DNA of 64,000 nucleotides from a virus (taxonomy: Duplodnaviria; Heunggongvirae; Uroviricota; Caudoviricetes). Location: the IMG/VR virus record IMGVR_UViG_3300031413_000001. The stretch is one strand, 5' to 3'. A program made the translations under genes and the position numbers. Numbering within the stretch: the first letter of the stretch is position 1; every line of letters starts with the position of its first letter. Below are positions 4,922 through 59,573 of the stretch, piece by piece. The notes under the pieces are model-generated. The model was given only the letters and a program-made list of their open reading frames with translations, did not search any database and was not told the DNA's origin.

Positions 4922-6202
4922 TTACGATGCATTCTTCAAAATGTTCCAGGCCAGTTTGCCCGAAGCATCAAGTCCCCACCAAAACACATCGCCGTTTGGC
5001 AACATGCGGGGGCGACTGTCATTGTACCAAGTCTGGATCCAGGGAGCCGTTACTTCAAAGCCAGTTGCACTGATGGCGCTTCCTGGGCTCTGACTTGCCA
5101 TGTTGGCATCATCACGACGGGTGATCTTGATCTTGATATTGCCGCTGGTTGCGCTGGCAAAGTGGGTACGATCCCACAGCATCACATAGTTGGGGTCCAT
5201 TGGAAACGCCAATTGTGGATTGGGAGATTGCGTTGAAGTAAAGCTACCAAAGCCATCATTGGTCGAGGTACCCACTGTGTTAGTGGTGCCACCGCTCAAT
5301 CCATAGTAATAGTTCCAAGTCCAGGACGTGCGAGCCATACGAGTGTCGGACATCATAGCCATGTCCTGCGCCTGCGTGACAAGCGAGTTACCCAGCGAGT
5401 TCTCAAAACGTGGATAATTGGCTGCAATCGTGCCATCGGCATTGACTACCAGTGTTTGAAACTGCATCGCAGTACCATTCCAAGCAGCCAAGGTACTGGC
5501 AGTCTTAAACGTGATAGCCTTCTTGGTGCTGTTGGGAATCGCACGCCAGTAAACTTCCGCGGAGTTAGCAGATCCCGCGTTGTTGAAACCTCCTTGGGAG
5601 GTCAAGTTGCTGCTATTGAATGTTACAACCTTGGTCGTGGTGTTGTAGGTACAGACAGCAGAGACGCTAGTCACCGAGGAATTGTTGAACCCAGCAAAGA
5701 GAAACTGATTATCGGCCAGTGGCACCAGTGTCGCGATGTTGGTGAACTTTGCATTGGAAAGCTGCTGAGGGGTCAAGTAGCCGGTGGAGTTGGGAATAGA
5801 AGTCTGCACAACATCGTAGGCATCCAGATTGGTTGCCGTTCTGGTGAACACATTATCGGCGTTGATCTCAAATACTTCATAGGACCAGCTAACGCTGGTT
5901 ACGGCCTGAAGATCCATGATCATAAAGGCGTTGTCGTTTAGCCGTACCATCTGAAGACTCAAGCCCCTGTAGGTCTTCTGATCCTGCATACGCGAGACAG
6001 TGACTGTTGGTGTACCGCCATTGGCCCAGCCCTCTGGGGTATCAACAACCACAAAGTAACGCCAATCAGGTGCACTCTGACAGTAAGTCCAGATCATGCG
6101 AGTTGGGGTTAGCTGGACGGCTGCCGAATAGGGCTGCGCGGTCCTAAGTGTTCCACCATTGTAGGGAATGGCAGGAATGCTTCGTGTAATTACCTCAGCC
6201 AT
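4922..6202 (-). CDS. putative virion structural protein (beta-rich paralog 2)
   Basis: shares RSIxAxP..GG, L..xRMxW.Y.Q..P, RR.D.N and W.GLD blocks with paralog 1. Confidence 0.6.
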   Translation of the reverse strand: MAEVITRSIPAIPYNGGTLRTAQPYSAAVQLTPTRMIWTYCQSAPDWRYFVVVDTPEGWANGGTPTVTVSRMQDQKTYRGLSLQMVRLNDNAFMIMDLQAVTSVSWSYEVFEINADNVFTRTATNLDAYDVVQTSIPNSTGYLTPQQLSNAKFTNIATLVPLADNQFLFAGFNNSSVTSVSAVCTYNTTTKVVTFNSSNLTSQGGFNNAGSANSAEVYWRAIPNSTKKAITFKTASTLAAWNGTAMQFQTLVVNADGTIAANYPRFENSLGNSLVTQAQDMAMMSDTRMARTSWTWNYYYGLSGGTTNTVGTSTNDGFGSFTSTQSPNPQLAFPMDPNYVMLWDRTHFASATSGNIKIKITRRDDANMASQSPGSAISATGFEVTAPWIQTWYNDSRPRMLPNGDVFWWGLDASGKLAWNILKNAS

Positions 6203-6224
6203 ATTTTGCTCCTATTGCTTGACG

Positions 6225-6230
6225 TATTTA
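6225..6230 (-). promoter_or_regulatory. putative late promoter TAAATA
   Basis: T4-like late core ~23 nt before ATG 6202, with AGGAG RBS between. Confidence 0.55.
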
Positions 6231-6246
6231 TCTGCGTTGTTGGATA

Positions 6247-7914
6247 TTAGACTGGACGGAATTCCACCATGGAAACATAGATTCCGCCAATACCTCCCTG
6301 AACAGATCCATCGGTACTGTAACTCATTGACATGTTTATGCTGGTTCCCGAGACCGACACCTGTCTTTCCACAAAATCATTACTGAAAGATCCAGTACCT
6401 GATGCAACAGTCGATCCTCCCAGAGAGAGATTATAGGGATCATAGGTGTTTTCAGACTGAGCTAGGAAACGAATGATCGCAACACTCATTCCTGCGGGAA
6501 CCTTGAATGTGAAGCTGGTAGAATAGCTGACATTGTTTCCATGAGCGGGGGTGGCAAGTACGCCTGTTGATCCCAGCGCGGTATCGACGTAATCCAATAG
6601 CCTGAATCCTGAACCTGTTACTGTCATGTTTGCTGGTAGCTTGGTGGTGTCGTTGAAGAGGAAACGGGCATTCAAAACACGAGTTGGCTGTGGCAGTGGA
6701 TCAGTGGCCGGTGGGTTCACTGGTGCTACAGAAGTCGGCTCAAGCATGTTCAGACGATACGTTCCCGAAGACAATCCAGCCCACATCAAGTTGTTCTTAC
6801 TGGTTACAACAGGTCGCCTCTTGTCAAAGGGAAGTGTGAACTTGGTAGCGGCCGTGGAAGACGGCACCACCTTGCCCCACCAGTTATTAGCCGACCAAGT
6901 GCTAACTGTGTGAAAGTTCTTGTCTTCTCGACGAACAGCCTTCATGAACATTGAAGTATCAAGCTCTTGAAAGTATTCGCGTCGTAGCTGAAGATGATGA
7001 TCATTACCGAGTGGAACAATGATTGGTCGATACAACGTATTGTCATCATTGCTACCACTATAGTTCTGTGAGGCTGACCAGCTTTCGACGGTACCGTCCT
7101 TATTGTAATAGGTTTGACGCCCCCACTTGCTTACTACCATCCGATTGGGACCAAGGAACATTGGCTCACCATCAACGGTAAAGCGCGACCTGAGAGGGAC
7201 TCCGGTGTTGTCCATAAGCCAGATGCGAGTTGAGTAGGCGTAATAGTTGACCGTCACTGACCTGTTGACAATCATGGTATCGGTGGTGCCTGGAATCCTC
7301 TGCCATGAGATATCAGTGGTCAAATCTGTTTCACTGTCCACAGATTGACGAACCAGTGTTACCGATGCAGTGACTACTGGGGGACCAGCCGAAGCCGGAT
7401 TGAACTGATAGACAGCATAAGTGGACTGGTTGCTGGTGTTGTAGTAGGTTTGAATGAACCGAGTATCAGACAAGGGGATCAGAACGTGACTGGCATTGTA
7501 GCCATTATTCTTTGCGTTGGTGTTTGTCTGAACACTGGTATTCAACACGCGGGTGATGGTGGTCCCTGAAATCTCAAAGACTTCCAGCTTGATTGTTCCA
7601 GTGCTGCGCGGCTCACTTACCACAAAGCGGGTATCACTCAACCGGACAACACTGGCGCCATTTCCCTGAAAGGCTTCTCGATCCAGATAGCCAACCGTCC
7701 GAGTGATAGTTGGACTGGCAATGTTGGTGTCAAGGCCGTCGGGCATATCAACGACCAGAAAAGTCCTGGTGTAAAGGTCGGGTGAGACCCCGGTGATGTT
7801 ATAGAGGATCACCATCCTGTTGTCCGTTAGGCGAACATGGTTGGTAGATGTATAGGTTCCATTGAATGTTCCCTGGGCAACATTCAGCGCAATCTGACGC
7901 GAGACAATAGCCAT
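6247..7914 (-). CDS. putative virion/receptor-binding protein (paralog 3 with extra C-terminal domain)
   Basis: same core, then Pro-rich linker and a beta-rich C-terminal domain. Confidence 0.6.
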   Translation of the reverse strand: MAIVSRQIALNVAQGTFNGTYTSTNHVRLTDNRMVILYNITGVSPDLYTRTFLVVDMPDGLDTNIASPTITRTVGYLDREAFQGNGASVVRLSDTRFVVSEPRSTGTIKLEVFEISGTTITRVLNTSVQTNTNAKNNGYNASHVLIPLSDTRFIQTYYNTSNQSTYAVYQFNPASAGPPVVTASVTLVRQSVDSETDLTTDISWQRIPGTTDTMIVNRSVTVNYYAYSTRIWLMDNTGVPLRSRFTVDGEPMFLGPNRMVVSKWGRQTYYNKDGTVESWSASQNYSGSNDDNTLYRPIIVPLGNDHHLQLRREYFQELDTSMFMKAVRREDKNFHTVSTWSANNWWGKVVPSSTAATKFTLPFDKRRPVVTSKNNLMWAGLSSGTYRLNMLEPTSVAPVNPPATDPLPQPTRVLNARFLFNDTTKLPANMTVTGSGFRLLDYVDTALGSTGVLATPAHGNNVSYSTSFTFKVPAGMSVAIIRFLAQSENTYDPYNLSLGGSTVASGTGSFSNDFVERQVSVSGTSINMSMSYSTDGSVQGGIGGIYVSMVEFRPV

Positions 7915-35843: not shown

Positions 35844-37555
35844 ACCACATCCAACAAAGCGTCGACGTGCCAGCGGCAAAAGTCCTCCATGGCGCCATCC
35901 TTGCCCCAGCCAATGCTGTTGGCCAGTTCCTGCAGGTCCAGTGAGCCATCCCTGATCAGGATCCCACTGTCGGTGAAGAAGCGGACGTTGGCCTGCCAGA
36001 TCACACGACTAAGTTCCATTTCGGCCGAGGGCGGAATCTTTGCCCGACTGCGAAGGCTCACATAGGGAAGCGCATATGGTGCGCGGCCTCGTTGACCACC
36101 ATTGAGCACAACGGAAAGCCCACCCATGTGACTTCCAACGATAAAGTCCCTCAGGTCCACCACATCATAGTAGGCGTCGTCCTTGTAGTCTGCAAAGTCC
36201 GAGAGAAGGATCACATCCGTGATGTTGATGCGATCGCCCAGTCTCATCCGTGCGCTGTTGATGGTCTCACCAGTCACGCTGTCATCTTCGACCAGCACGT
36301 AATCGCCGTCCGGGATGCTGTCCGCCTGTTCCTGCAAGCTGTCGAAGCCAAAGCGCGTATCGCGGAACAATGCCGAGAACTGTGAGCTGCTCTGACTGAA
36401 GTAGCGAGTGCTGTCCAGGTGGTGTACGCCCTGGTAATGGAAGAATGGATCTAAGCTGATCACCTTCCGATCACCGATCAGCCAAGTGGCCTTTTCCTTC
36501 TGCTCACTTACCGGCAGGAGATGGACTTTGTGATTTCCGCCTGCACCTTTGAACAAGTGTGCGATTGCAAGCCGAATTGCGCTCTGAAGCTGAACCCGAC
36601 GCTTTGTGAGCTCCTCACGACCGCCCGGCATCCTATTTGCCCAGCCGACGATTGCCTCGTCTTCCTCGTTGCGGATCAAGTAGGGAAGATTTCCTGTGTC
36701 CTGGTTCTTGTATTCCTGGAAATACTTGGCAACCCGGGGGTTCAAGTGATGATGCTCACCCTCGCGTACCAGCTTGCTCGACACTTCACTCCGCGTTACC
36801 TGTACGCTTGGAATACCAGTTTCCTGGAAGCCACTGTTGTCGGAGCCGTAGACGTAAAAGACATCAAAGATCTGTCCCAAGTTCTGGGACAAGTATGCTT
36901 CCATCCGGCGAGCAACCGCCGTGAAGTTTACCTCGCCCGGCATGTAGCGGGCAGCCCAGGGATCGACCTCAAGCCAGTCGCTGTCCTGCGTTGCGAGCTC
37001 CACCATTGCGATACGATGGACTGCCGAAATACCAGCCGTTCCGTTGTACTTTTGGCTAACGTAGCTGTCATGTCCTGGGGCGAAGAAGCCGCCCATTACT
37101 TGAAAGCCCTGGCCCTCAACGATCTCACGAGCGCGCTCCATCATTGCGATGTGCCCGTTGTGGATGGGAGCCATTCCGCCAGTTGTGATCAGGACTGCCC
37201 TGCGACCACCATTGTTTCCGCCGATCAGCTTGAGCAGGTTGTTGCGAACCTTCTGAAGCGACGTGGTCTGAAACGTTGGATTGTAGGTTCTATATTGCTC
37301 AACCAACTTGGGGAGCCCGTCGTCGAAGAATCCTGCGTTGAACAGGTCCTTGGTGTCGTGACGGAAGTCATAGACCTCACGGTACGTGGGATCGCTGAGT
37401 GCTTTCCAAGCGTACCGCTGATCGTCCGTTAGCACCTTGCCCGAACCAGCTTCTTCGATCTCTTCCCGCGTTGCTACGCGATGAAGGCCCAGCAGATTAT
37501 AAAGATCCGCTTCCGGTCGGTGGGCTGTTATGCCGCATGAATAAGTGTCCGTCAT
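35840..37555 (-). CDS. fusion: J-domain remnant + NMN/NaMN adenylyltransferase + type I PRTase-like domain
   Basis: TTGGMAPIHNGH (HxGH), HRIAMVELATQDSDWLEVDPW, YGSD; YVLVEDDSVTGETI PRPP-loop; LYNLLG...ALSDP..R..YD. Confidence 0.8.
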   Translation of the reverse strand: MTDTYSCGITAHRPEADLYNLLGLHRVATREEIEEAGSGKVLTDDQRYAWKALSDPTYREVYDFRHDTKDLFNAGFFDDGLPKLVEQYRTYNPTFQTTSLQKVRNNLLKLIGGNNGGRRAVLITTGGMAPIHNGHIAMMERAREIVEGQGFQVMGGFFAPGHDSYVSQKYNGTAGISAVHRIAMVELATQDSDWLEVDPWAARYMPGEVNFTAVARRMEAYLSQNLGQIFDVFYVYGSDNSGFQETGIPSVQVTRSEVSSKLVREGEHHHLNPRVAKYFQEYKNQDTGNLPYLIRNEEDEAIVGWANRMPGGREELTKRRVQLQSAIRLAIAHLFKGAGGNHKVHLLPVSEQKEKATWLIGDRKVISLDPFFHYQGVHHLDSTRYFSQSSSQFSALFRDTRFGFDSLQEQADSIPDGDYVLVEDDSVTGETINSARMRLGDRINITDVILLSDFADYKDDAYYDVVDLRDFIVGSHMGGLSVVLNGGQRGRAPYALPYVSLRSRAKIPPSAEMELSRVIWQANVRFFTDSGILIRDGSLDLQELANSIGWGKDGAMEDFCRWHVDALLDVV

Positions 37556-37596
37556 GCCACCCACTTTGCACCAGTCTGGAGACCAGTCAACCAGCT

Positions 37597-38013
37597 TTAT
37601 AGGTTTTGGAAGAGCTCATCACCATGCTCACACTGGATATTGCTATCCGTGATCTTCTGGCCAGCAGCCTTGAGAGCCTCGTTGCGGCGACTGACTTCCT
37701 CGGCAGTGTTGAACAGTCGGAGCGATTCCTTGCCCAGGTCGTGGACTTCCCGGATCGTGAGCTTTTTGTCGCCCAGCGCCTTGGCCGTCATCAGGCTCAG
37801 GTCGGGGCAAGCGCCGGTGTAGGTCTGGGTATAGGACTCGCCGTCACCATACTCCTTGGTTTCCGTTTCGTTGAAGACCCGCTTGGCGTCATAGTAATAA
37901 CGCATGGGCGCTTCGCGGTCGGGAAACAGAACGTACTCGGGGGTAATGATATAACCCCAAGCGGCCACGCAGCCGACCATTATGCCGATGCCGATCGACT
38001 TTCCAATGCTCAT
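37597..38013 (-). CDS. membrane-anchored hypothetical protein
   Basis: N-terminal TM; ATGA overlap. Confidence 0.7.
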   Translation of the reverse strand: MSIGKSIGIGIMVGCVAAWGYIITPEYVLFPDREAPMRYYYDAKRVFNETETKEYGDGESYTQTYTGACPDLSLMTAKALGDKKLTIREVHDLGKESLRLFNTAEEVSRRNEALKAAGQKITDSNIQCEHGDELFQNL

Positions 38014-38249
38014 CCCAGTGCCTTCATCAGGAGTTGATAGACGCGAGCCTGCGGGCTGTCGGGGTAGGCGTGGTCGATTGCCATACCGCAGCGACCAGTC
38101 CGATGACACATCGCCGCCCACAGTGCTTCATCGAGGCGCTGGTTGCTTTCGATCTTGGCTTCCGGGGTGGGGTTCCACTCCTTTCCGCCTGCCTTCATCT
38201 GCGCGTACAGGTTTGTGAATTCCTCGCGCTCGTCAGGGGTCAAGGCCAT
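38010..38249 (-). CDS. hypothetical protein
   Basis: operon context. Confidence 0.7.
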   Translation of the reverse strand: MALTPDEREEFTNLYAQMKAGGKEWNPTPEAKIESNQRLDEALWAAMCHRTGRCGMAIDHAYPDSPQARVYQLLMKALG

Positions 38250-38447
38250 TTACTTTCCCTTCTCGTCTTTGGATCCCGAAAAATACAGGAGGATCAGGAA
38301 GATGATGATCGACACCGGGAGGGTAGCGACCGTGTTGCGGGTTCCCTCGTCCCAGTGACCGATGTTCCAATCACCGGCGTTGATCATTCCCAGTGCGATA
38401 GCGATGCCCTGCATGATCGCAAAGAGGAGAAGAATGGCCTTGCCCAT
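38250..38447 (-). CDS. small membrane protein
   Basis: 2 TM. Confidence 0.7.
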   Translation of the reverse strand: MGKAILLLFAIMQGIAIALGMINAGDWNIGHWDEGTRNTVATLPVSIIIFLILLYFSGSKDEKGK

Positions 38448-38647
38448 CAGAAAATACCAGTCCAGTTTTCCGTGGGGCCGAGCACCTTACGAAGACAGGA
38501 GCGACTTTCATCGTCCAGCTTGATGGAGCTCACTTCCCGCGTGGTCATGTCCTCGACCTGGAGGTACATATAGCCATCGTGGTTGCTGGTACCCACCGTG
38601 AACCGATGGGTCTCGCTGATTGCCGAGTTTGCGATCTTTAACGTCAT
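38447..38647 (-). CDS. hypothetical protein
   Basis: AGGAGATCGA RBS. Confidence 0.7.
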   Translation of the reverse strand: MTLKIANSAISETHRFTVGTSNHDGYMYLQVEDMTTREVSSIKLDDESRSCLRKVLGPTENWTGIF

Positions 38648-38678
38648 GCTCGATCTCCTAACAGGAACTGGCCCAGTG

Positions 38679-38984
38679 TCAACCGTGTTCTTCGGTCCAC
38701 CGCTTCAAGTAGTCGTCGAGGTCGGTCCGACTGGTCACCGGCTTGCTGGCGAACGGATCGGGACGCCACTGGGGATCGTTGGAGAGAACGAGGATGCAGT
38801 TGTCGATCGCACCCTCAGGGCTCAGAAAGCAGTCATCGCTGAGCTGATCGCCGTTGGGCAGCTTGGCTGACCACGACCAGCCCGAGATACCGCTGACGAA
38901 CATGATGTCAACGCCCAGATGCTTGTCGCGAACGTCCTGGAACCGTGGATCATTCTGCTCGCACGGATTGTAGGTCTGAATCAC
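38679..38984 (-). CDS. hypothetical protein
   Basis: AAGGAGG RBS, GTG start. Confidence 0.7.
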   Translation of the reverse strand: MIQTYNPCEQNDPRFQDVRDKHLGVDIMFVSGISGWSWSAKLPNGDQLSDDCFLSPEGAIDNCILVLSNDPQWRPDPFASKPVTSRTDLDDYLKRWTEEHG

Positions 38985-39163
38985 TTCTTTGCCTCCTTGC
39001 TCCGGAGTTCGGCCTGACGCCAACCCCTCTGAAAATCCTTGGCCGCTGCACTGTCACCATATGGGTGGAAGTCAACGTCCTCGCCAGCTTCGAACGCTTC
39101 GCGCCCCTCGACCTCGTTGACATTAAAGCCAATCGGTAGCAGCCATATTGGGGTACGCTTCAT
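38981..39163 (-). CDS. hypothetical protein
   Basis: GGAG RBS; G..AF.AG....PY......F..GW motif. Confidence 0.65.
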   Translation of the reverse strand: MKRTPIWLLPIGFNVNEVEGREAFEAGEDVDFHPYGDSAAAKDFQRGWRQAELRSKEAKK

Positions 39164-43641: not shown

Positions 43642-43707
43642 CTTCGATCTCCTGTCTTCGTTTCCTATAACTCTGGTGTAGCGGATTCCACACCAGAGTC
43701 AACCGCC

Positions 43708-43866
43708 TTATTCGCCGATGATCAGCGCGCCATCCTGCGTGAGCGTTGCATCTTCGGCCTGGGTGAGACGATCGTCTTCACCTGCGATGGTGATCGCCAT
43801 GTCCAGCTGGATCTCATCCATGTTGTCGATGATTGCCTTCAGCATCCGCGGGGTCAGTACGCTCAT
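43708..43866 (-). CDS. hypothetical protein
   Basis: single-gene cassette. Confidence 0.7.
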   Translation of the reverse strand: MSVLTPRMLKAIIDNMDEIQLDMAITIAGEDDRLTQAEDATLTQDGALIIGE

Positions 43867-43933
43867 CTTCGATCTCCTAGTTGTTTGCCTACAACCCAGA
43901 GTTAGCACATTCTAACTCTGGGTCAACCGCTTT

Positions 43934-44266
43934 TTAGTGCCGCGTGTTGATCGCACCACGTGCCATTGCGCTGTAATACTGCGAGGGCATGTCGGCCTTC
44001 AGACGGGGCGTCAGCATCGCCATGTAGTTGCCGCCCATCGTCTCGTAGCCCTTTGCCAGCTTGCTACGCAGGAGATCGGCGGGGACGCCGTTGATCTCGG
44101 TCTTGAACTTCAGCGCGCCGTTGCGACGACCCCAGAAGCGAACCAGCGTGTTGCCGATCTTCGCCAGACCCCAGACCTTGTCGTTCTGCGCTGCGCCGCC
44201 GCGAATGCCGCGCTTGCCCTCGTTGTAAAAGTGCGCTGCTGCGATGATTTCGATCTGTGCGGCCAT
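43934..44266 (-). CDS. WGR-domain protein
   Basis: NDKVWG...FWGRR...KLAKGY. Confidence 0.7.
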   Translation of the reverse strand: MAAQIEIIAAAHFYNEGKRGIRGGAAQNDKVWGLAKIGNTLVRFWGRRNGALKFKTEINGVPADLLRSKLAKGYETMGGNYMAMLTPRLKADMPSQYYSAMARGAINTRH

Positions 44267-44356
44267 TTTCTGCTCCTGCTGTGTGCGTTTCCGATAAACA
44301 GACAATAGCACCAGAGTTTGGCCGCGCAACCGCTTTTTAACCAGAGTTTGAACTTT

Positions 44357-49569: not shown

Positions 49570-49727
49570 CAGTCCTGGAGACGACCGATTGGATCCATCA
49601 TGCCGCAAAGCCGAAGCCATGCGCGATGGCTCTTGGCAGCCGCAGCATCAGCGGCCTTCTGTGCTTCCACCTTTCGTGCTGCTTCGCGCATTTCGATCTC
49701 TGCGATAACCTGTCCGTACTGGCTCAT
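49569..49727 (-). CDS. hypothetical protein
   Basis: TAATG coupling to nadE. Confidence 0.6.
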   Translation of the reverse strand: MSQYGQVIAEIEMREAARKVEAQKAADAAAAKSHRAWLRLCGMMDPIGRLQD

Positions 49728-50755
49728 TATGCCCTCCAGGGAGTGTTGTTCCAGCCACCAGTAACACCACAATCCAGGATGTCAAGGTGGACAGCGGGCG
49801 ACCGACCCAGATACTTGTGAGCGTTGTACTTGTGCATACGCTCCAGGTTCTCGCTGTATTCCTCCCACTGTGCCTGGGCTGCTGGGAGATTGTTGCCGAT
49901 GCTCAGGCAGCGCGTGACATCATAGACCACACTGTCGACGCCACCATAGGCAAGCTGTCGAGCACCAGCGCGCTTGAACTCCATGTAGAGCTCCACGAAA
50001 TCATATGGAGCGCCGAACACAACCTCGTCAGTCGTCGCATCATACATATCGCCAGTTGGGGCGCGATTTAGGACTTCCTCGGGAACACCCAGGAAACGAC
50101 CCAGATCGTAGATCTCGCTCTTGTAAGCATCGCTGATCAGCTGAACGTCGACCATGCCATCGCTAGCCTTGCCGAAATAGCCGAGGTAGCCGCCCTCCGA
50201 AAGGTTGGTCGTGCCGATCATCAGGCCAGGCTGACCCTGTGCTGCCAGGATGCTGGTAACATAATAGTAAGCCGGCGTCCGCGCGTAGCTGGTTGCCTGA
50301 CCAGCGCACCACAGTTCCTTTTCATCGCTGGGATACCCGACTGCGCTCTCGACCTCTGCGATCAATGGACCGGTGATTCGGCTCATATTGATCACTGCGG
50401 CCTTGACCCCAAAAGCCTCGCAGACTTCCTGTGCGAGCCGCGTGGCCTGCCTCTGGCCCGTAACCCCTGGGTTGACGTTGTCGGGCATTGTGATTGCCAC
50501 GATACGTTCGATGGGGCTGTCATCGGCCCGAGCGGCCATTTCCACGAGGCCGAGAACGACCGCGCTGTCGATGCCGCCCGACACTGCGACGACGGCGGAC
50601 TTGAGCCCTGCCTGACGATAGTAGTCGTTGAGGAGAATGGTCTTTCGTTCGATGTAGTCCTCGACCACGAAGTTCCGTGCCTCGCGGACAATTTCCAGTG
50701 CCCTCTTGAGCGCGGGCTCCATGACCATGTTGGTCTTTTCGTTACGAATTTCCAA
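49727..50755 (-). CDS. nadE: NH3-dependent NAD+ synthetase
   Basis: SGGIDS PP-loop, GTTNLSE, GYFGKASDG, KSEIY.L...LGVP, APTGD. Confidence 0.9.
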   Translation of the reverse strand: MEIRNEKTNMVMEPALKRALEIVREARNFVVEDYIERKTILLNDYYRQAGLKSAVVAVSGGIDSAVVLGLVEMAARADDSPIERIVAITMPDNVNPGVTGQRQATRLAQEVCEAFGVKAAVINMSRITGPLIAEVESAVGYPSDEKELWCAGQATSYARTPAYYYVTSILAAQGQPGLMIGTTNLSEGGYLGYFGKASDGMVDVQLISDAYKSEIYDLGRFLGVPEEVLNRAPTGDMYDATTDEVVFGAPYDFVELYMEFKRAGARQLAYGGVDSVVYDVTRCLSIGNNLPAAQAQWEEYSENLERMHKYNAHKYLGRSPAVHLDILDCGVTGGWNNTPWRA

Positions 50756-50820
50756 TTTCGATCTCCTGTTGTTCCATTCAACATAGTGCCAGACTGGAAC
50801 GCGTCAACCAGTTTAGTCAC

Positions 50821-50857
50821 AAAAAAGCGCGCTAGTTTCCCAGCGCGCTCTCTTTTG
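50821..50857 (-). terminator. intrinsic terminator
   Basis: AGCGCGCT-N8-AGCGCGCT (self-complementary arms) followed by T-run on - strand. Confidence 0.7.
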
Positions 50858-50858
50858 C

Positions 50859-51206
50859 TTAACGCGTCTTAAGCCACTTTGTGCGCTGCTTAATTGCTTT
50901 TTTGTAAGCTGCAATAACTTTGCTGTTGTTGCCCTTAAGTTCCATCGCTTCATAAACAAAAGCGCGCCCAGTCAACTCCAGTTCATCGTTAGTCATGTTG
51001 TACACTGTTTCAGGATCATGTCCCAGTGCTTTCATGTCTGCTTCAAACGTGTCGTCAAGCTCATCGTTTGTTACGTCAACGCTTGCGTACTCATTGTTGT
51101 TGTGCAGCGTCAAGTCTGATGCCCAGTTGTGCAGCGTGTCGTCATTGAAAGTGTTTGCAGTCTGGATTGCAGCGCGCACAACAAGCGTGTTTTCGATCTT
51201 GCTCAT
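50859..51206 (-). CDS. acidic hypothetical protein, atypical composition
   Basis: own promoter and terminator; coding strand has 2 CC sites in 348 nt. Confidence 0.8.
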   Translation of the reverse strand: MSKIENTLVVRAAIQTANTFNDDTLHNWASDLTLHNNNEYASVDVTNDELDDTFEADMKALGHDPETVYNMTNDELELTGRAFVYEAMELKGNNSKVIAAYKKAIKQRTKWLKTR

Positions 51207-51407
51207 TTTGTAGTCCTTTGTTTGTTTGCTTCCGATAAACAGACATTAGCATAAAACTGGAAACGCGCAAGCAAAAAAGTACTCAGTTTCAAAAATAATT
51301 GAGCTAAAAATGCGCGCAAAATTGCCCTTTTTGAGTAAAACTGGTTGCAGTAACTCTGGTTTATGCTAATGTCTTTTTATCGGAAACGCACAAAGCGGAG
51401 TAACAAA
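51207..51407. promoter_or_regulatory. AT-rich divergent promoter pair with A/T tracts
   Basis: both carry TTATGCTAATGTCT-x-TTTATCGGAA. Confidence 0.75.
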
Positions 51408-51791
51408 ATGCACTTAGAGATCGACGCAAAAGCAAAGAAGGCTATTAACAAGACTTTGAAGGCTTTTGGTCTGCGGATCACTTTGGGGCAGGGTTCGACG
51501 ACGCGCTACATGATACAGCGAAAGCGCATGATCACGAACAGCTATGGTGCGAAACCGGGTAGCTGGTACGCTGTTGGTCTTGCATACGGCGAGCAGCTGG
51601 TAAACGTGCTAAAAGATGGCACGATGGCAATTAAGAAGACTGGCGACAATGGCTGGTATTTGGATCGGAAGGACTTTGGGGACGTTTGGGGCCCGGTCGA
51701 GATCGAGGAACGCGCGATGCTGGTCATCGAGCTAACGCTGCTGGTAATGCAGTATGGGCAGCTCGAGGGGCAGGAGGAACTGACCTACTAA
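51408..51791 (+). CDS. hypothetical protein, atypical composition
   Basis: GGAG RBS; coding strand CC at 3 sites only. Confidence 0.8.
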   Translation: MHLEIDAKAKKAINKTLKAFGLRITLGQGSTTRYMIQRKRMITNSYGAKPGSWYAVGLAYGEQLVNVLKDGTMAIKKTGDNGWYLDRKDFGDVWGPVEIEERAMLVIELTLLVMQYGQLEGQEELTY

Positions 51792-58690: not shown

Positions 58691-59218
58691 TTACTCCAGG
58701 AAAAGGTAGCCGTTGTTGACTTCAGCGATCATATCATCGTGGTCGGGTGCATCTTCTGCATTGCCGTCATCCATGGCCTGATCGTACTCGTCTTCCTGGA
58801 TGACGCGAAAGCCCGCAAGAGTGGATGCTTCGTCGTGGTCCTGTGGGAAAAAGGTCACGTCCCAGTTACCGTTGAAGTGGCCGTTGGTGTAGATGTCGAG
58901 TGCGATCTGGGTGCGAAATGCCGAATAGTCACCGTGGTTTGCGGCGGCCATTGCCTCGATGATGCTGTCCGCACCTCTGAGCTCTTGTTCGTCGGGCTGT
59001 GCTGGCATGTTATCTTCCTCGCTTTCGTCAAAGCCGATCAGTGGGACCGGAGGTTCTGGGATGGGTTCACGCGCAATCGCTTCGTCCCAAATTGCTTGGA
59101 CGGCTGCGCGCGTTTCGTCGCTGATCGTTTTTGGATCAAAGGGAGGGGCGGGCTCGACCTTGATCGTGCCATCGAGGATGCCTTGGATTCTTGCGATAGT
59201 TTCCGGCTTCAGCGCCAT
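58691..59218 (-). CDS. highly acidic hypothetical protein
   Basis: promoter element and RBS. Confidence 0.75.
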   Translation of the reverse strand: MALKPETIARIQGILDGTIKVEPAPPFDPKTISDETRAAVQAIWDEAIAREPIPEPPVPLIGFDESEEDNMPAQPDEQELRGADSIIEAMAAANHGDYSAFRTQIALDIYTNGHFNGNWDVTFFPQDHDEASTLAGFRVIQEDEYDQAMDDGNAEDAPDHDDMIAEVNNGYLFLE

Positions 59219-59280
59219 GATCGATCTCCCTAGTTGTTGCTCCTGTTCCTAACACCAGAACAGGAGCCTGCAACCACTTT

Positions 59281-59505
59281 TTACAGCGAATCGACGTCGT
59301 CACCGTTGAACGTGCTGTCCATGACCAGCGTGTCAATATCGGTCAGGATCCAGGTGTTTTCCACCAGGTCGCGAGCGTTGATTTCGAGAAGATAGATGAT
59401 GCAGCCCGGTTCGTTGACGAACTCATGCTTGCAGACCTTGAGGGCGCCCTCCTTGCTATCGCGCTGCTCGAACATTCCCTCGGTGGTGTAAGCAATATAC
59501 CGCAT
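59281..59505 (-). CDS. hypothetical protein
   Basis: single-gene cassette. Confidence 0.7.
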   Translation of the reverse strand: MRYIAYTTEGMFEQRDSKEGALKVCKHEFVNEPGCIIYLLEINARDLVENTWILTDIDTLVMDSTFNGDDVDSL

Positions 59506-59573
59506 GCCAAACTCCTGCTAGTTCCTATAAAGAGACACTAGCAGGGTTGTCCAGAGTTGCAACCACAAAGGAG

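Follow-up and report, generated by a model that had tools for sequence, protein, structure and literature searches.

Pyrimidine-C avoidance across transcription units of small phage genes: a divergent gene pair of a giant phage and its distant relatives

Messages without the cleavage word of a toxin have been described for MazF (mRNAs lacking ACA) and for MqsR (GCU-poor mRNAs), and in viruses of eukaryotes host factors deplete dinucleotides, CpG in the case of ZAP and TC in that of APOBEC3. Here we analyzed a 64,000-nt stretch of a giant phage (IMG/VR record IMGVR_UViG_3300031413_000001; hereafter the window), in which two divergent orphan genes, A (50859..51206, minus strand) and B (51408..51791, plus strand), have message strands almost without the dinucleotide CC and, in A, also depleted of TC. 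As in the MazF and MqsR cases, a short word is gone from the entire message, which would suit an antidote whose message must survive the poison; here, however, the word has two letters, so that avoiding it recodes the protein itself. As with ZAP and APOBEC3, the avoidance would be shaped by a host reader of single-stranded nucleic acid, but those depletions are genome-wide and partial, whereas the present one is confined to single transcription units, can be total, and has a purely mutational (deaminase) origin excluded. We know of no genome with a coding-strand CC observed/expected (obs/exp) ratio near 0.1.

The termination factor Rho holds 5'-YC (Y, pyrimidine) in its primary binding site (review PMC12360218), and Rho avoidance has been shown experimentally to shape the composition and codon usage of coding strands, synonymous recoding being enough to create Rho termination (Dierksheide et al. 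2026, PMC13323073). The genes studied here share with that effect the loss of pyrimidine-rich words on the transcription strand, imposed on codon choice, as well as purine-rich messages (purine fraction 0.58-0.62) with G above C and a C-rich antisense strand. They differ from it in that the avoidance is gene-specific rather than genome-wide, exact to the dinucleotide (C keeps a share of 20-22%, though behind purines only) and, in some cassettes, absolute and strong enough to strip proline from the protein. The HEPN RNase SisCsx1 is a strong cutter of 5'-C-C-3' and a weak one of U-C (PMC6754442), the same order of CC above UC that we find, although the specificity of Csx1 was measured in an archaeon and no cognate nuclease is known for the hosts of these phages. 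CmdT, of the CmdTAC system, is an mRNA ADP-ribosyltransferase that modifies GA dinucleotides in single-stranded RNA (PMC11618068) and sets a precedent for an anti-phage effector reading a bare dinucleotide; its own target, GA, is at normal frequency in A and B.

Depletion of CC and TC in genes A and B

Gene A encodes a protein of 115 aa with a single proline and a net charge of -6, and gene B one of 127 aa with two prolines. A first-pass annotation, made by a model from the letters of the window, had reported two CC sites in A, and the same two were recounted, namely the junction ATC|CAG and the proline codon CCT (obs/exp 0.12). For B it had reported three sites; there are indeed three places, the proline codon CCG, the junction GGC|CCG and an ACC, but the junction produces CCC and a CC inside it was overlooked, so that the overlapping total is four (obs/exp 0.26). 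The per-gene comparison of dinucleotides that the annotation had proposed places A and B lowest in CC among 118 crude open reading frames (ORFs) of the window, the next value being 0.43. They carry 5.7 and 9.3 CC per kb, and every other ORF of the window carries at least 29.8. A 416,714-bp IMG/VR relative, G002, which is about 90% complete and about 98% identical across the island formed by the two genes, gave the same picture: over its 620 ORFs the mean CC obs/exp is 0.93 (standard deviation 0.16), and A (0.06) and B (0.24) are the two lowest. From the proteins and the codon usage of the window, about 15 CC are expected in A and 16.5 in B, and none of 2000 simulations was as low as the genes themselves. 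Sliding 300-nt scans found the window depleted in two places alone, over A on the minus strand and over B on the plus strand, which upholds the claim that the bias flips with the strand transcribed.

The second dinucleotide affected is TC, which occurs 5 times in A against about 14-15 expected (obs/exp 0.33) and 12 times in B (0.76). Taken together, YC is found 7 times in the 348 nt of A and 16 times in the 384 nt of B, the average being about 42 per 300 nt. The only other low-YC spot in G002 (275,790-275,910) is intergenic, about 11 tandem copies of the 12-nt GGGCACTTACAA and not a gene. Both genes are rich in purines (fraction 0.580 in A, rank 12 of 620; 0.597 in B, rank 4 of 620), CT and TT are somewhat enriched in both, and the difference of C minus G is the third lowest of the 620 ORFs in B and ordinary in A.

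When codons were resampled with the protein preserved, CC was the most depleted dinucleotide in A, in B and in their orthologues (z -3.5 to -4.0), followed in A by TC. Codon choice in A depends on the base before the third position: C is favoured there after a purine (AAC 10:2, GAC 7:3, AGC 3:0) and T after a pyrimidine, with GCC, ACC, GTC and CTC all unused; in other words, NRC codons are used freely and NYC codons are avoided. The avoidance extends over codon boundaries. Compared with shuffles of their own synonymous codons, B has one junction CC against 5.0 (P=0.006), its orthologue one against 5.6 (P=0.004) and the A orthologue of contig L004 none against 2.4 (P=0.015), and codons standing before C-starting codons end in a pyrimidine in 2/18 cases in A and 4/25 in B, as opposed to 58/97 and 51/102 elsewhere. 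Since purines are what precedes the C-starting codons, a C-to-T mutational process cannot be the cause, and the junction statistics exclude codon-level and purely mutational causes alike.

The L004 orthologue of A is 62% identical, differs at 13 of 23 conserved four-fold sites and, together with A, uses GCC or ACC in none of 46 Ala/Thr codons; it has 0 CC and 3 TC at a GC content of 0.53 and a third-position GC content (GC3) of 0.69, like its neighbours. A B orthologue of 78% identity still has four CC. The avoidance has thus been kept through near-saturated synonymous change, and purifying selection holds the message strand nearly free of CC and, in A, also of TC. It reaches beyond the coding part of A, as CC and TC are both absent from the message strand of its 3' untranslated region (UTR) and terminator (50820..50858, minus strand).

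YC-free cassettes in distant homologues of A

An exhaustive HMMER search with a profile of A recovered distant homologues on unrelated phage contigs of 16-151 kb, with identities of 27-39%; those with at most two YC have E values of 1e-16 to 2e-8. Their counts are graded: the homologue on contig L042 (378 nt) has neither CC nor TC, that on L040 (339 nt) has 0 CC and 2 TC, L037 (363 nt) has one of each, L035 (354 nt) has 1 CC and 8 TC, and the weakest homologue, on L043 (363 nt), has 7 CC and 15 TC. Given the protein and the local codon usage, 22-33 YC would be expected in each of the first four, and the minimum over 3000 simulations was 8-19; the adjoining genes have 90-160 YC per kb.

In two contigs the ban is total over a zone larger than the gene. 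From just past a putative -10 element to the end of the last hairpin, not a single CC or TC occurs in 482 nt of L042 (3943-4424) or in 778 nt of L040 (4092-4869), and these zones take in the UTRs, the intergenic spacer and terminator stems built of GCGCGC. The L040 zone spans in addition a second gene, coding for 114 aa with a net charge of -22, for which homology to A or B was looked for and none was found. The proteins of the YC-free cassettes have no proline, and their serines are written as AGY, never as TCN; the zones hold 32-36% G and 21-22% C, and the homologues of A carry net charges of -16 to -19. The rule is therefore pyrimidine-C and not CC alone, and it includes untranslated regions and terminator hairpins. 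Because junctions, UTRs, spacers and hairpins are all depleted, the constraint is one on the transcript in its entirety or on the non-template strand, and is no effect of codon usage. Compared with these distant cassettes, which show it in full, the window carries a partly relaxed form of a transcript-wide YC ban, and one lineage shows a graded relaxation in which CC stays the more strictly avoided.

An upstream architecture, TTGCTTGCGCG...CCAGTTT.TGCTA, is common to L004, L035 and the window, with a similar one in L040 and L042, so the unit behaves as a mobile cassette. The A protein family takes the ban with it, in contigs of giant phages and in phage contigs of roughly 40 kb, in the form of a promoter-to-terminator cassette. 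Directly upstream of the cassettes, between a tail-gene operon and the cassette, L040 (3640-3815) and L042 (3720-3825) have untranslated C-rich spacers of 39-40% C and 16-17% G, with 40 YC in 176 nt, which resemble Rho-loading (rut) sites of a kind that would halt read-through. On the other side, directly downstream of the cassette and before the next gene, there are three spaced copies of ATAGTTAAC with a GTTAAC core (L040 4895-4945; L042 4450-4495), which look like candidate operator sites.

A two-letter word is thus banned from entire transcription units at the price of rewriting the proteins, which go without proline and TCN serine. Such a ban is among the clearest signals of selection at the nucleic-acid level that can be found in a genome, and it offers a purely computational marker for phage genes that probably act first and belong to no recognisable protein family. 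It also raises a testable question, namely which factor of the infected cell reads YC on single strands.

Candidate readers of YC and other explanations

We infer that the RNA is in this way concealed from some factor of the cell that recognizes YC in RNA single strands, and we tentatively regard Rho as the likeliest such reader, though well short of confidently. The clefts of its primary site bind 5'-YC, so a YC-free message offers no loading site: each of the six clefts of Rho would find nothing to hold on a purine-rich message of this kind, whose synthesis would then run to its end even if ribosomes fell behind RNA polymerase. The small proteins encoded would probably be host-takeover or counter-defence factors, needed before anything else works, and might possibly act on the YC reader itself. 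The messages are as a Rho-evading transcript should be, with few YC, many purines and C not above G. One and the same rule recurs in different phages, as would suit a factor as nearly universal as Rho, and the rut-like spacers directly upstream of the L040 and L042 cassettes point in the same direction.

Several observations weigh against Rho. A cooperative binder of multiple sites should not need zero YC over 778 nt, and zero tolerance is more what one would expect of a nuclease, a modifier or another agent for which one hit suffices. The coding part should be covered by ribosomes and so out of Rho's reach. The strong ban affects only 2 of about 600 genes of the giant phage; four other genes with the same conserved promoter/leader word, described below, are only mildly CC-poor (0.41-0.67) and normal in TC, and a 90-aa gene of contig L001 behind the same promoter is barely depleted (0.70). 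Nothing links proteins A or B to Rho. Complex prediction for the A family with Rho of Escherichia coli, run without controls, returned 'no answer' (score 0.00) and speaks neither for nor against binding.

A possible alternative, to which we give somewhat less credence, is evasion by the message of a defence or toxin effector whose targets for cutting or modification in single-stranded RNA are CC and, less readily, UC, with a Csx1-like HEPN RNase as the model; a single hit would kill the message, and antidote messages would therefore be written without the target word. The total ban, 0 YC in 482 and in 778 nt, fits single-hit sensitivity, and the depletion of UTRs, spacer, hairpins and junctions regardless of frame is what a message free of a cleavage word would display. 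Where some YC remains, CC is shunned more strictly than TC, in A (0.12 against 0.33), in B (0.26 against 0.76), and also in L035 (1 CC, 8 TC) and L043 (7 CC, 15 TC), and this is the order of preference of SisCsx1 (PMC6754442). The CC-specific RNase suggested by the first-pass annotation is in this sense a live explanation with a precedent, except that the rule found is YC and not CC alone. Dinucleotide-reading enzymes of mRNA defence do exist, as CmdT illustrates (PMC11618068). Gene specificity would be natural, immunity being needed by the antidote alone, and small orphan proteins, with a strong negative charge in the distant homologues and the L040 partner (net -16 to -22), are encoded in cassettes that stand alone behind strong promoters, a typical layout of anti-defence loci.

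On the other hand, no YC-specific effector is known in bacteria, and, to our knowledge, no YC-reading analogue of CmdT has been described. The specificities of HEPN proteins vary widely, yet several phage lineages follow one YC rule, a point in favour of a single universal reader, and A, B and the 114-aa partner had no match in Pfam, PHROGs, PADLOC or PDB. It is conceivable, if rather doubtful, that a widespread and so far undescribed bacterial effector attacks single-stranded RNA at YC and that mobile 'stealth-coded' cassettes are the counter to it in phages that differ greatly in size. With the same reserve, such cassettes might be made up of a promoter, a YC-free message, GCGCGC hairpins and proline-free counter-defence proteins, among which A, B and the 114-aa partner of L040 would count. 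Were Rho the reader, phages would have to Rho-proof specific early messages, which would hint at where to seek new anti-Rho proteins; were it a nuclease or modifier, the cassettes would point to a new immune effector and its inhibitors. Under either reader, the YC rule could be used in the design of robustly expressed genes.

A constraint at the level of DNA is improbable. It would consist of a guanine modification or lesion, of phage or host origin, at GG/GA of the template that blocks host RNA polymerase, or of the exposure of YC in the non-template strand to a cytosine deaminase or another enzyme of single-stranded DNA. One strand only is affected, and only within the transcription unit, which a reading based on the transcription bubble would equally predict; the enrichment of CT and TT in A and B agrees with it, and G002 encodes FolE and a PTPS/QueD-like protein. 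Nevertheless, a C-to-T process cannot give purine endings before the C-starting codons of Gln, Arg and His, nor does it account for the absence of YC from non-synonymous positions; a footprint of mutation alone is thereby excluded, and a genome-wide threat should mark all genes, not two. A footprint of a YC-specific deaminase was rejected on the same grounds, purines and not T preceding C-starting codons and the codons for proline and TCN serine being absent. The first-pass annotation had also proposed a GG-directed template lesion. The concrete version examined, 7-deazaguanine through the DpdA system (DpdA of the TGT family plus the preQ0 genes FolE, QueD, QueE and QueC), was not supported in G002, which encodes FolE and PTPS but gave no PF01702 match for TGT/DpdA, and whose only QueC-like match is a second NadE beside NAPRTase; at about 90% completeness, this absence is not proof. 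Avoidance of a CRISPR protospacer-adjacent motif, another of its proposals, fails because GG is at normal frequency on the coding strand of B (41, obs/exp 0.99; in A, 11 and 0.54), so that the opposite strand is full of CC.

Translational adaptation of highly expressed early genes to the tRNAs of the host, in which NCC and NTC codons are avoided before phage tRNAs exist, is very unlikely. Genes behind the general AAAGCGGTTGAC-type phage promoters are slightly CC-poor (0.85 against 0.94, P=0.014), and the roughly 54 tRNAs of G002 include GGN-anticodon readers of NCC codons. However, junctions, 5' and 3' UTRs, spacers and terminator stems are depleted too, which refutes codon adaptation as a sufficient cause, and proline and TCN serine are stripped from the proteins themselves. 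The supply of phage tRNAs was likewise rejected as a cause, the set of G002 being near complete and without a specific link to these genes. Least credible of all is that A and B came by recent transfer, as an island, from a donor poor in CC, or that they reflect a lower GC3, the explanation that the first-pass annotation had set against its own: the island has 47% GC against 55% in the window, but GC3 is within the normal range (0.54 in A, 0.66 in B) and so cannot account for the depletion, the L004 orthologue has no CC at an ordinary GC3, and the ban survives near-saturated synonymous divergence.

Promoters, proteins and gene content of the locus

Genes A and B each make up an expression cassette complete in itself, with a sigma-70-like promoter, a leader word, a short 5' UTR and an ORF. 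They diverge around a 201-bp spacer of 36% GC that contains two inverted copies of one promoter/leader element, which bears out the AT-rich twin promoter of the first-pass annotation. The promoter of A (51232..51270, minus strand) has a -35-like TTGCGC (51270-51265), a 16-nt spacer and an extended -10, TGC-TAATGT (51251-43), followed by a conserved promoter/leader word of 20-22 nt, TGCTAATGTCTGTTTATCGG (inverted repeat I1). The promoter of B (51345..51385, plus strand) has TTGCAG (51345-50), again a 16-nt spacer, the same extended -10, TGC-TAATGT (51364-72), and the same word behind it, TGCTAATGTCTTTTTATCGG. In both, the -10 merges into the conserved word TGCTAATGTCTKTTTATCGG, and the two copies form a 35-nt inverted repeat. 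The 5' UTR of A (51207..51242, minus strand), whose start is deduced from the -10 element, contains an AAGGA Shine-Dalgarno sequence, and the intrinsic terminator at its other end, within the 3' UTR given above and found by a terminator scan (inverted repeat I3), has a stem of alternating GCGCGC (AGCGCGCT...AGCGCGCT) followed by a run of T on the message strand.

The conserved word occurs four times in the window and six times in G002, there all inside 30 kb. The third copy of the window (44291..44310, minus strand; one mismatch) drives a 110-aa orphan gene (43934-44266, minus strand) whose CC obs/exp of about 0.43 is the third lowest both in the window and in G002. The fourth and weaker copy (59524..59543, minus strand; three mismatches) drives a 74-aa orphan gene (59281-59505, minus strand) with ratios of 0.56 in the window and 0.44 in G002. 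The four lowest ratios among the 620 ORFs of G002 (0.06, 0.24, 0.41, 0.44) all belong to genes behind the word, and the remaining two word-driven genes have 0.65 and 0.67; promoter class thus correlates with CC depletion, yet the depletion is extreme only in A and B. A CC-free zone proximal to the 5' end and common to all word-driven genes was looked for and not found.

The 90-aa gene mentioned above lies between A and B in contigs L001-L003 (L001 5410-6000), behind a further copy of the promoter, and is absent from the window and from G002. The B promoter of the window (within 51330-51400) is a hybrid of the two direct-repeat promoter copies that lie on either side of this gene in L001-L003, from which it follows that the gene was lost here by recombination between promoters. 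In L001, an A orthologue of 93% identity (6001-6348) differs from A by 8 aa, mostly within residues 64-76, and by only 3 synonymous changes, a pattern that hints at a loop that evolves fast or at a small patch of recombination.

The general phage promoter, AAAAGCGGTTGAC/GGTTGCA with an extended -10, is seen in the window at 43650-44340 and 59200-59300 and in G002 at 228-262 kb. It is often followed by a hairpin and a AGGAGATCGA Shine-Dalgarno sequence, has 63 strict sites in G002 and heads many cassettes of small genes.

As for the proteins, AlphaFold2 gave an all-helical structure in the only confident model of A (predicted local distance difference test, pLDDT, 81), the other four models scoring 44-62; Foldseek found no match for it in PDB or BFVD at E<=0.001. 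The model of B (pLDDT 49) was too poor for a fold search. No match was obtained in Pfam, PHROGs or PADLOC for A, B, the L040 partner or the gene at 43934-44266, in Pfam for the gene at 59281-59505, the 90-aa gene or the distant A homologues P0007-P0009, or in PADLOC for P0009. PDB sequence profiles queried with the A and B family profiles, and DNA and protein searches of a phage collection with the island, A, B, P0009 and the L040 partner, gave none either, and the ESM Atlas yielded no usable lead. The likeness of A to DNA mimics that had been claimed from its acidic core comes down to charge, -6 in A and -16 to -19 in its homologues, with no counterpart found by Foldseek in PDB or BFVD. An anti-restriction DNA mimic of the Ocr/ArdA type, which would have a strongly acidic surface and a fold like that of known mimics, was not supported, one of five models of A being confident. 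The design of the cassettes, the acidity and the logic of an antidote message suggest that the proteins may serve in anti-defence or host takeover, and the sigma-70-like promoters suggest that they could be among the first expressed.

The window is part of a giant phage, protein B being found on contigs of up to 463,863 bp, and is dense in small orphan ORFs. Its other genes include NadE (49727-50755), a 2-oxoglutarate-Fe(II) oxygenase, an NMNAT-like gene, synthetases of the GluRS/GlnRS and TrpRS/TyrRS types and cell-wall hydrolases. Besides the NadE and NMNAT-like genes of the window, G002 has a second NadE beside NAPRTase (36,990-39,030; L044 1270-3307), so that the phage carries an extended set for NAD salvage. 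The tRNAs of G002, about 54 in a near-complete set (L019 11086-11159; L030 10698-10776; L031-L032), include two with a CTA anticodon, of the amber-suppressor type and labelled tRNA-Pyl by ARAGORN, which hint at a possible reassignment or suppression of TAG late in infection.

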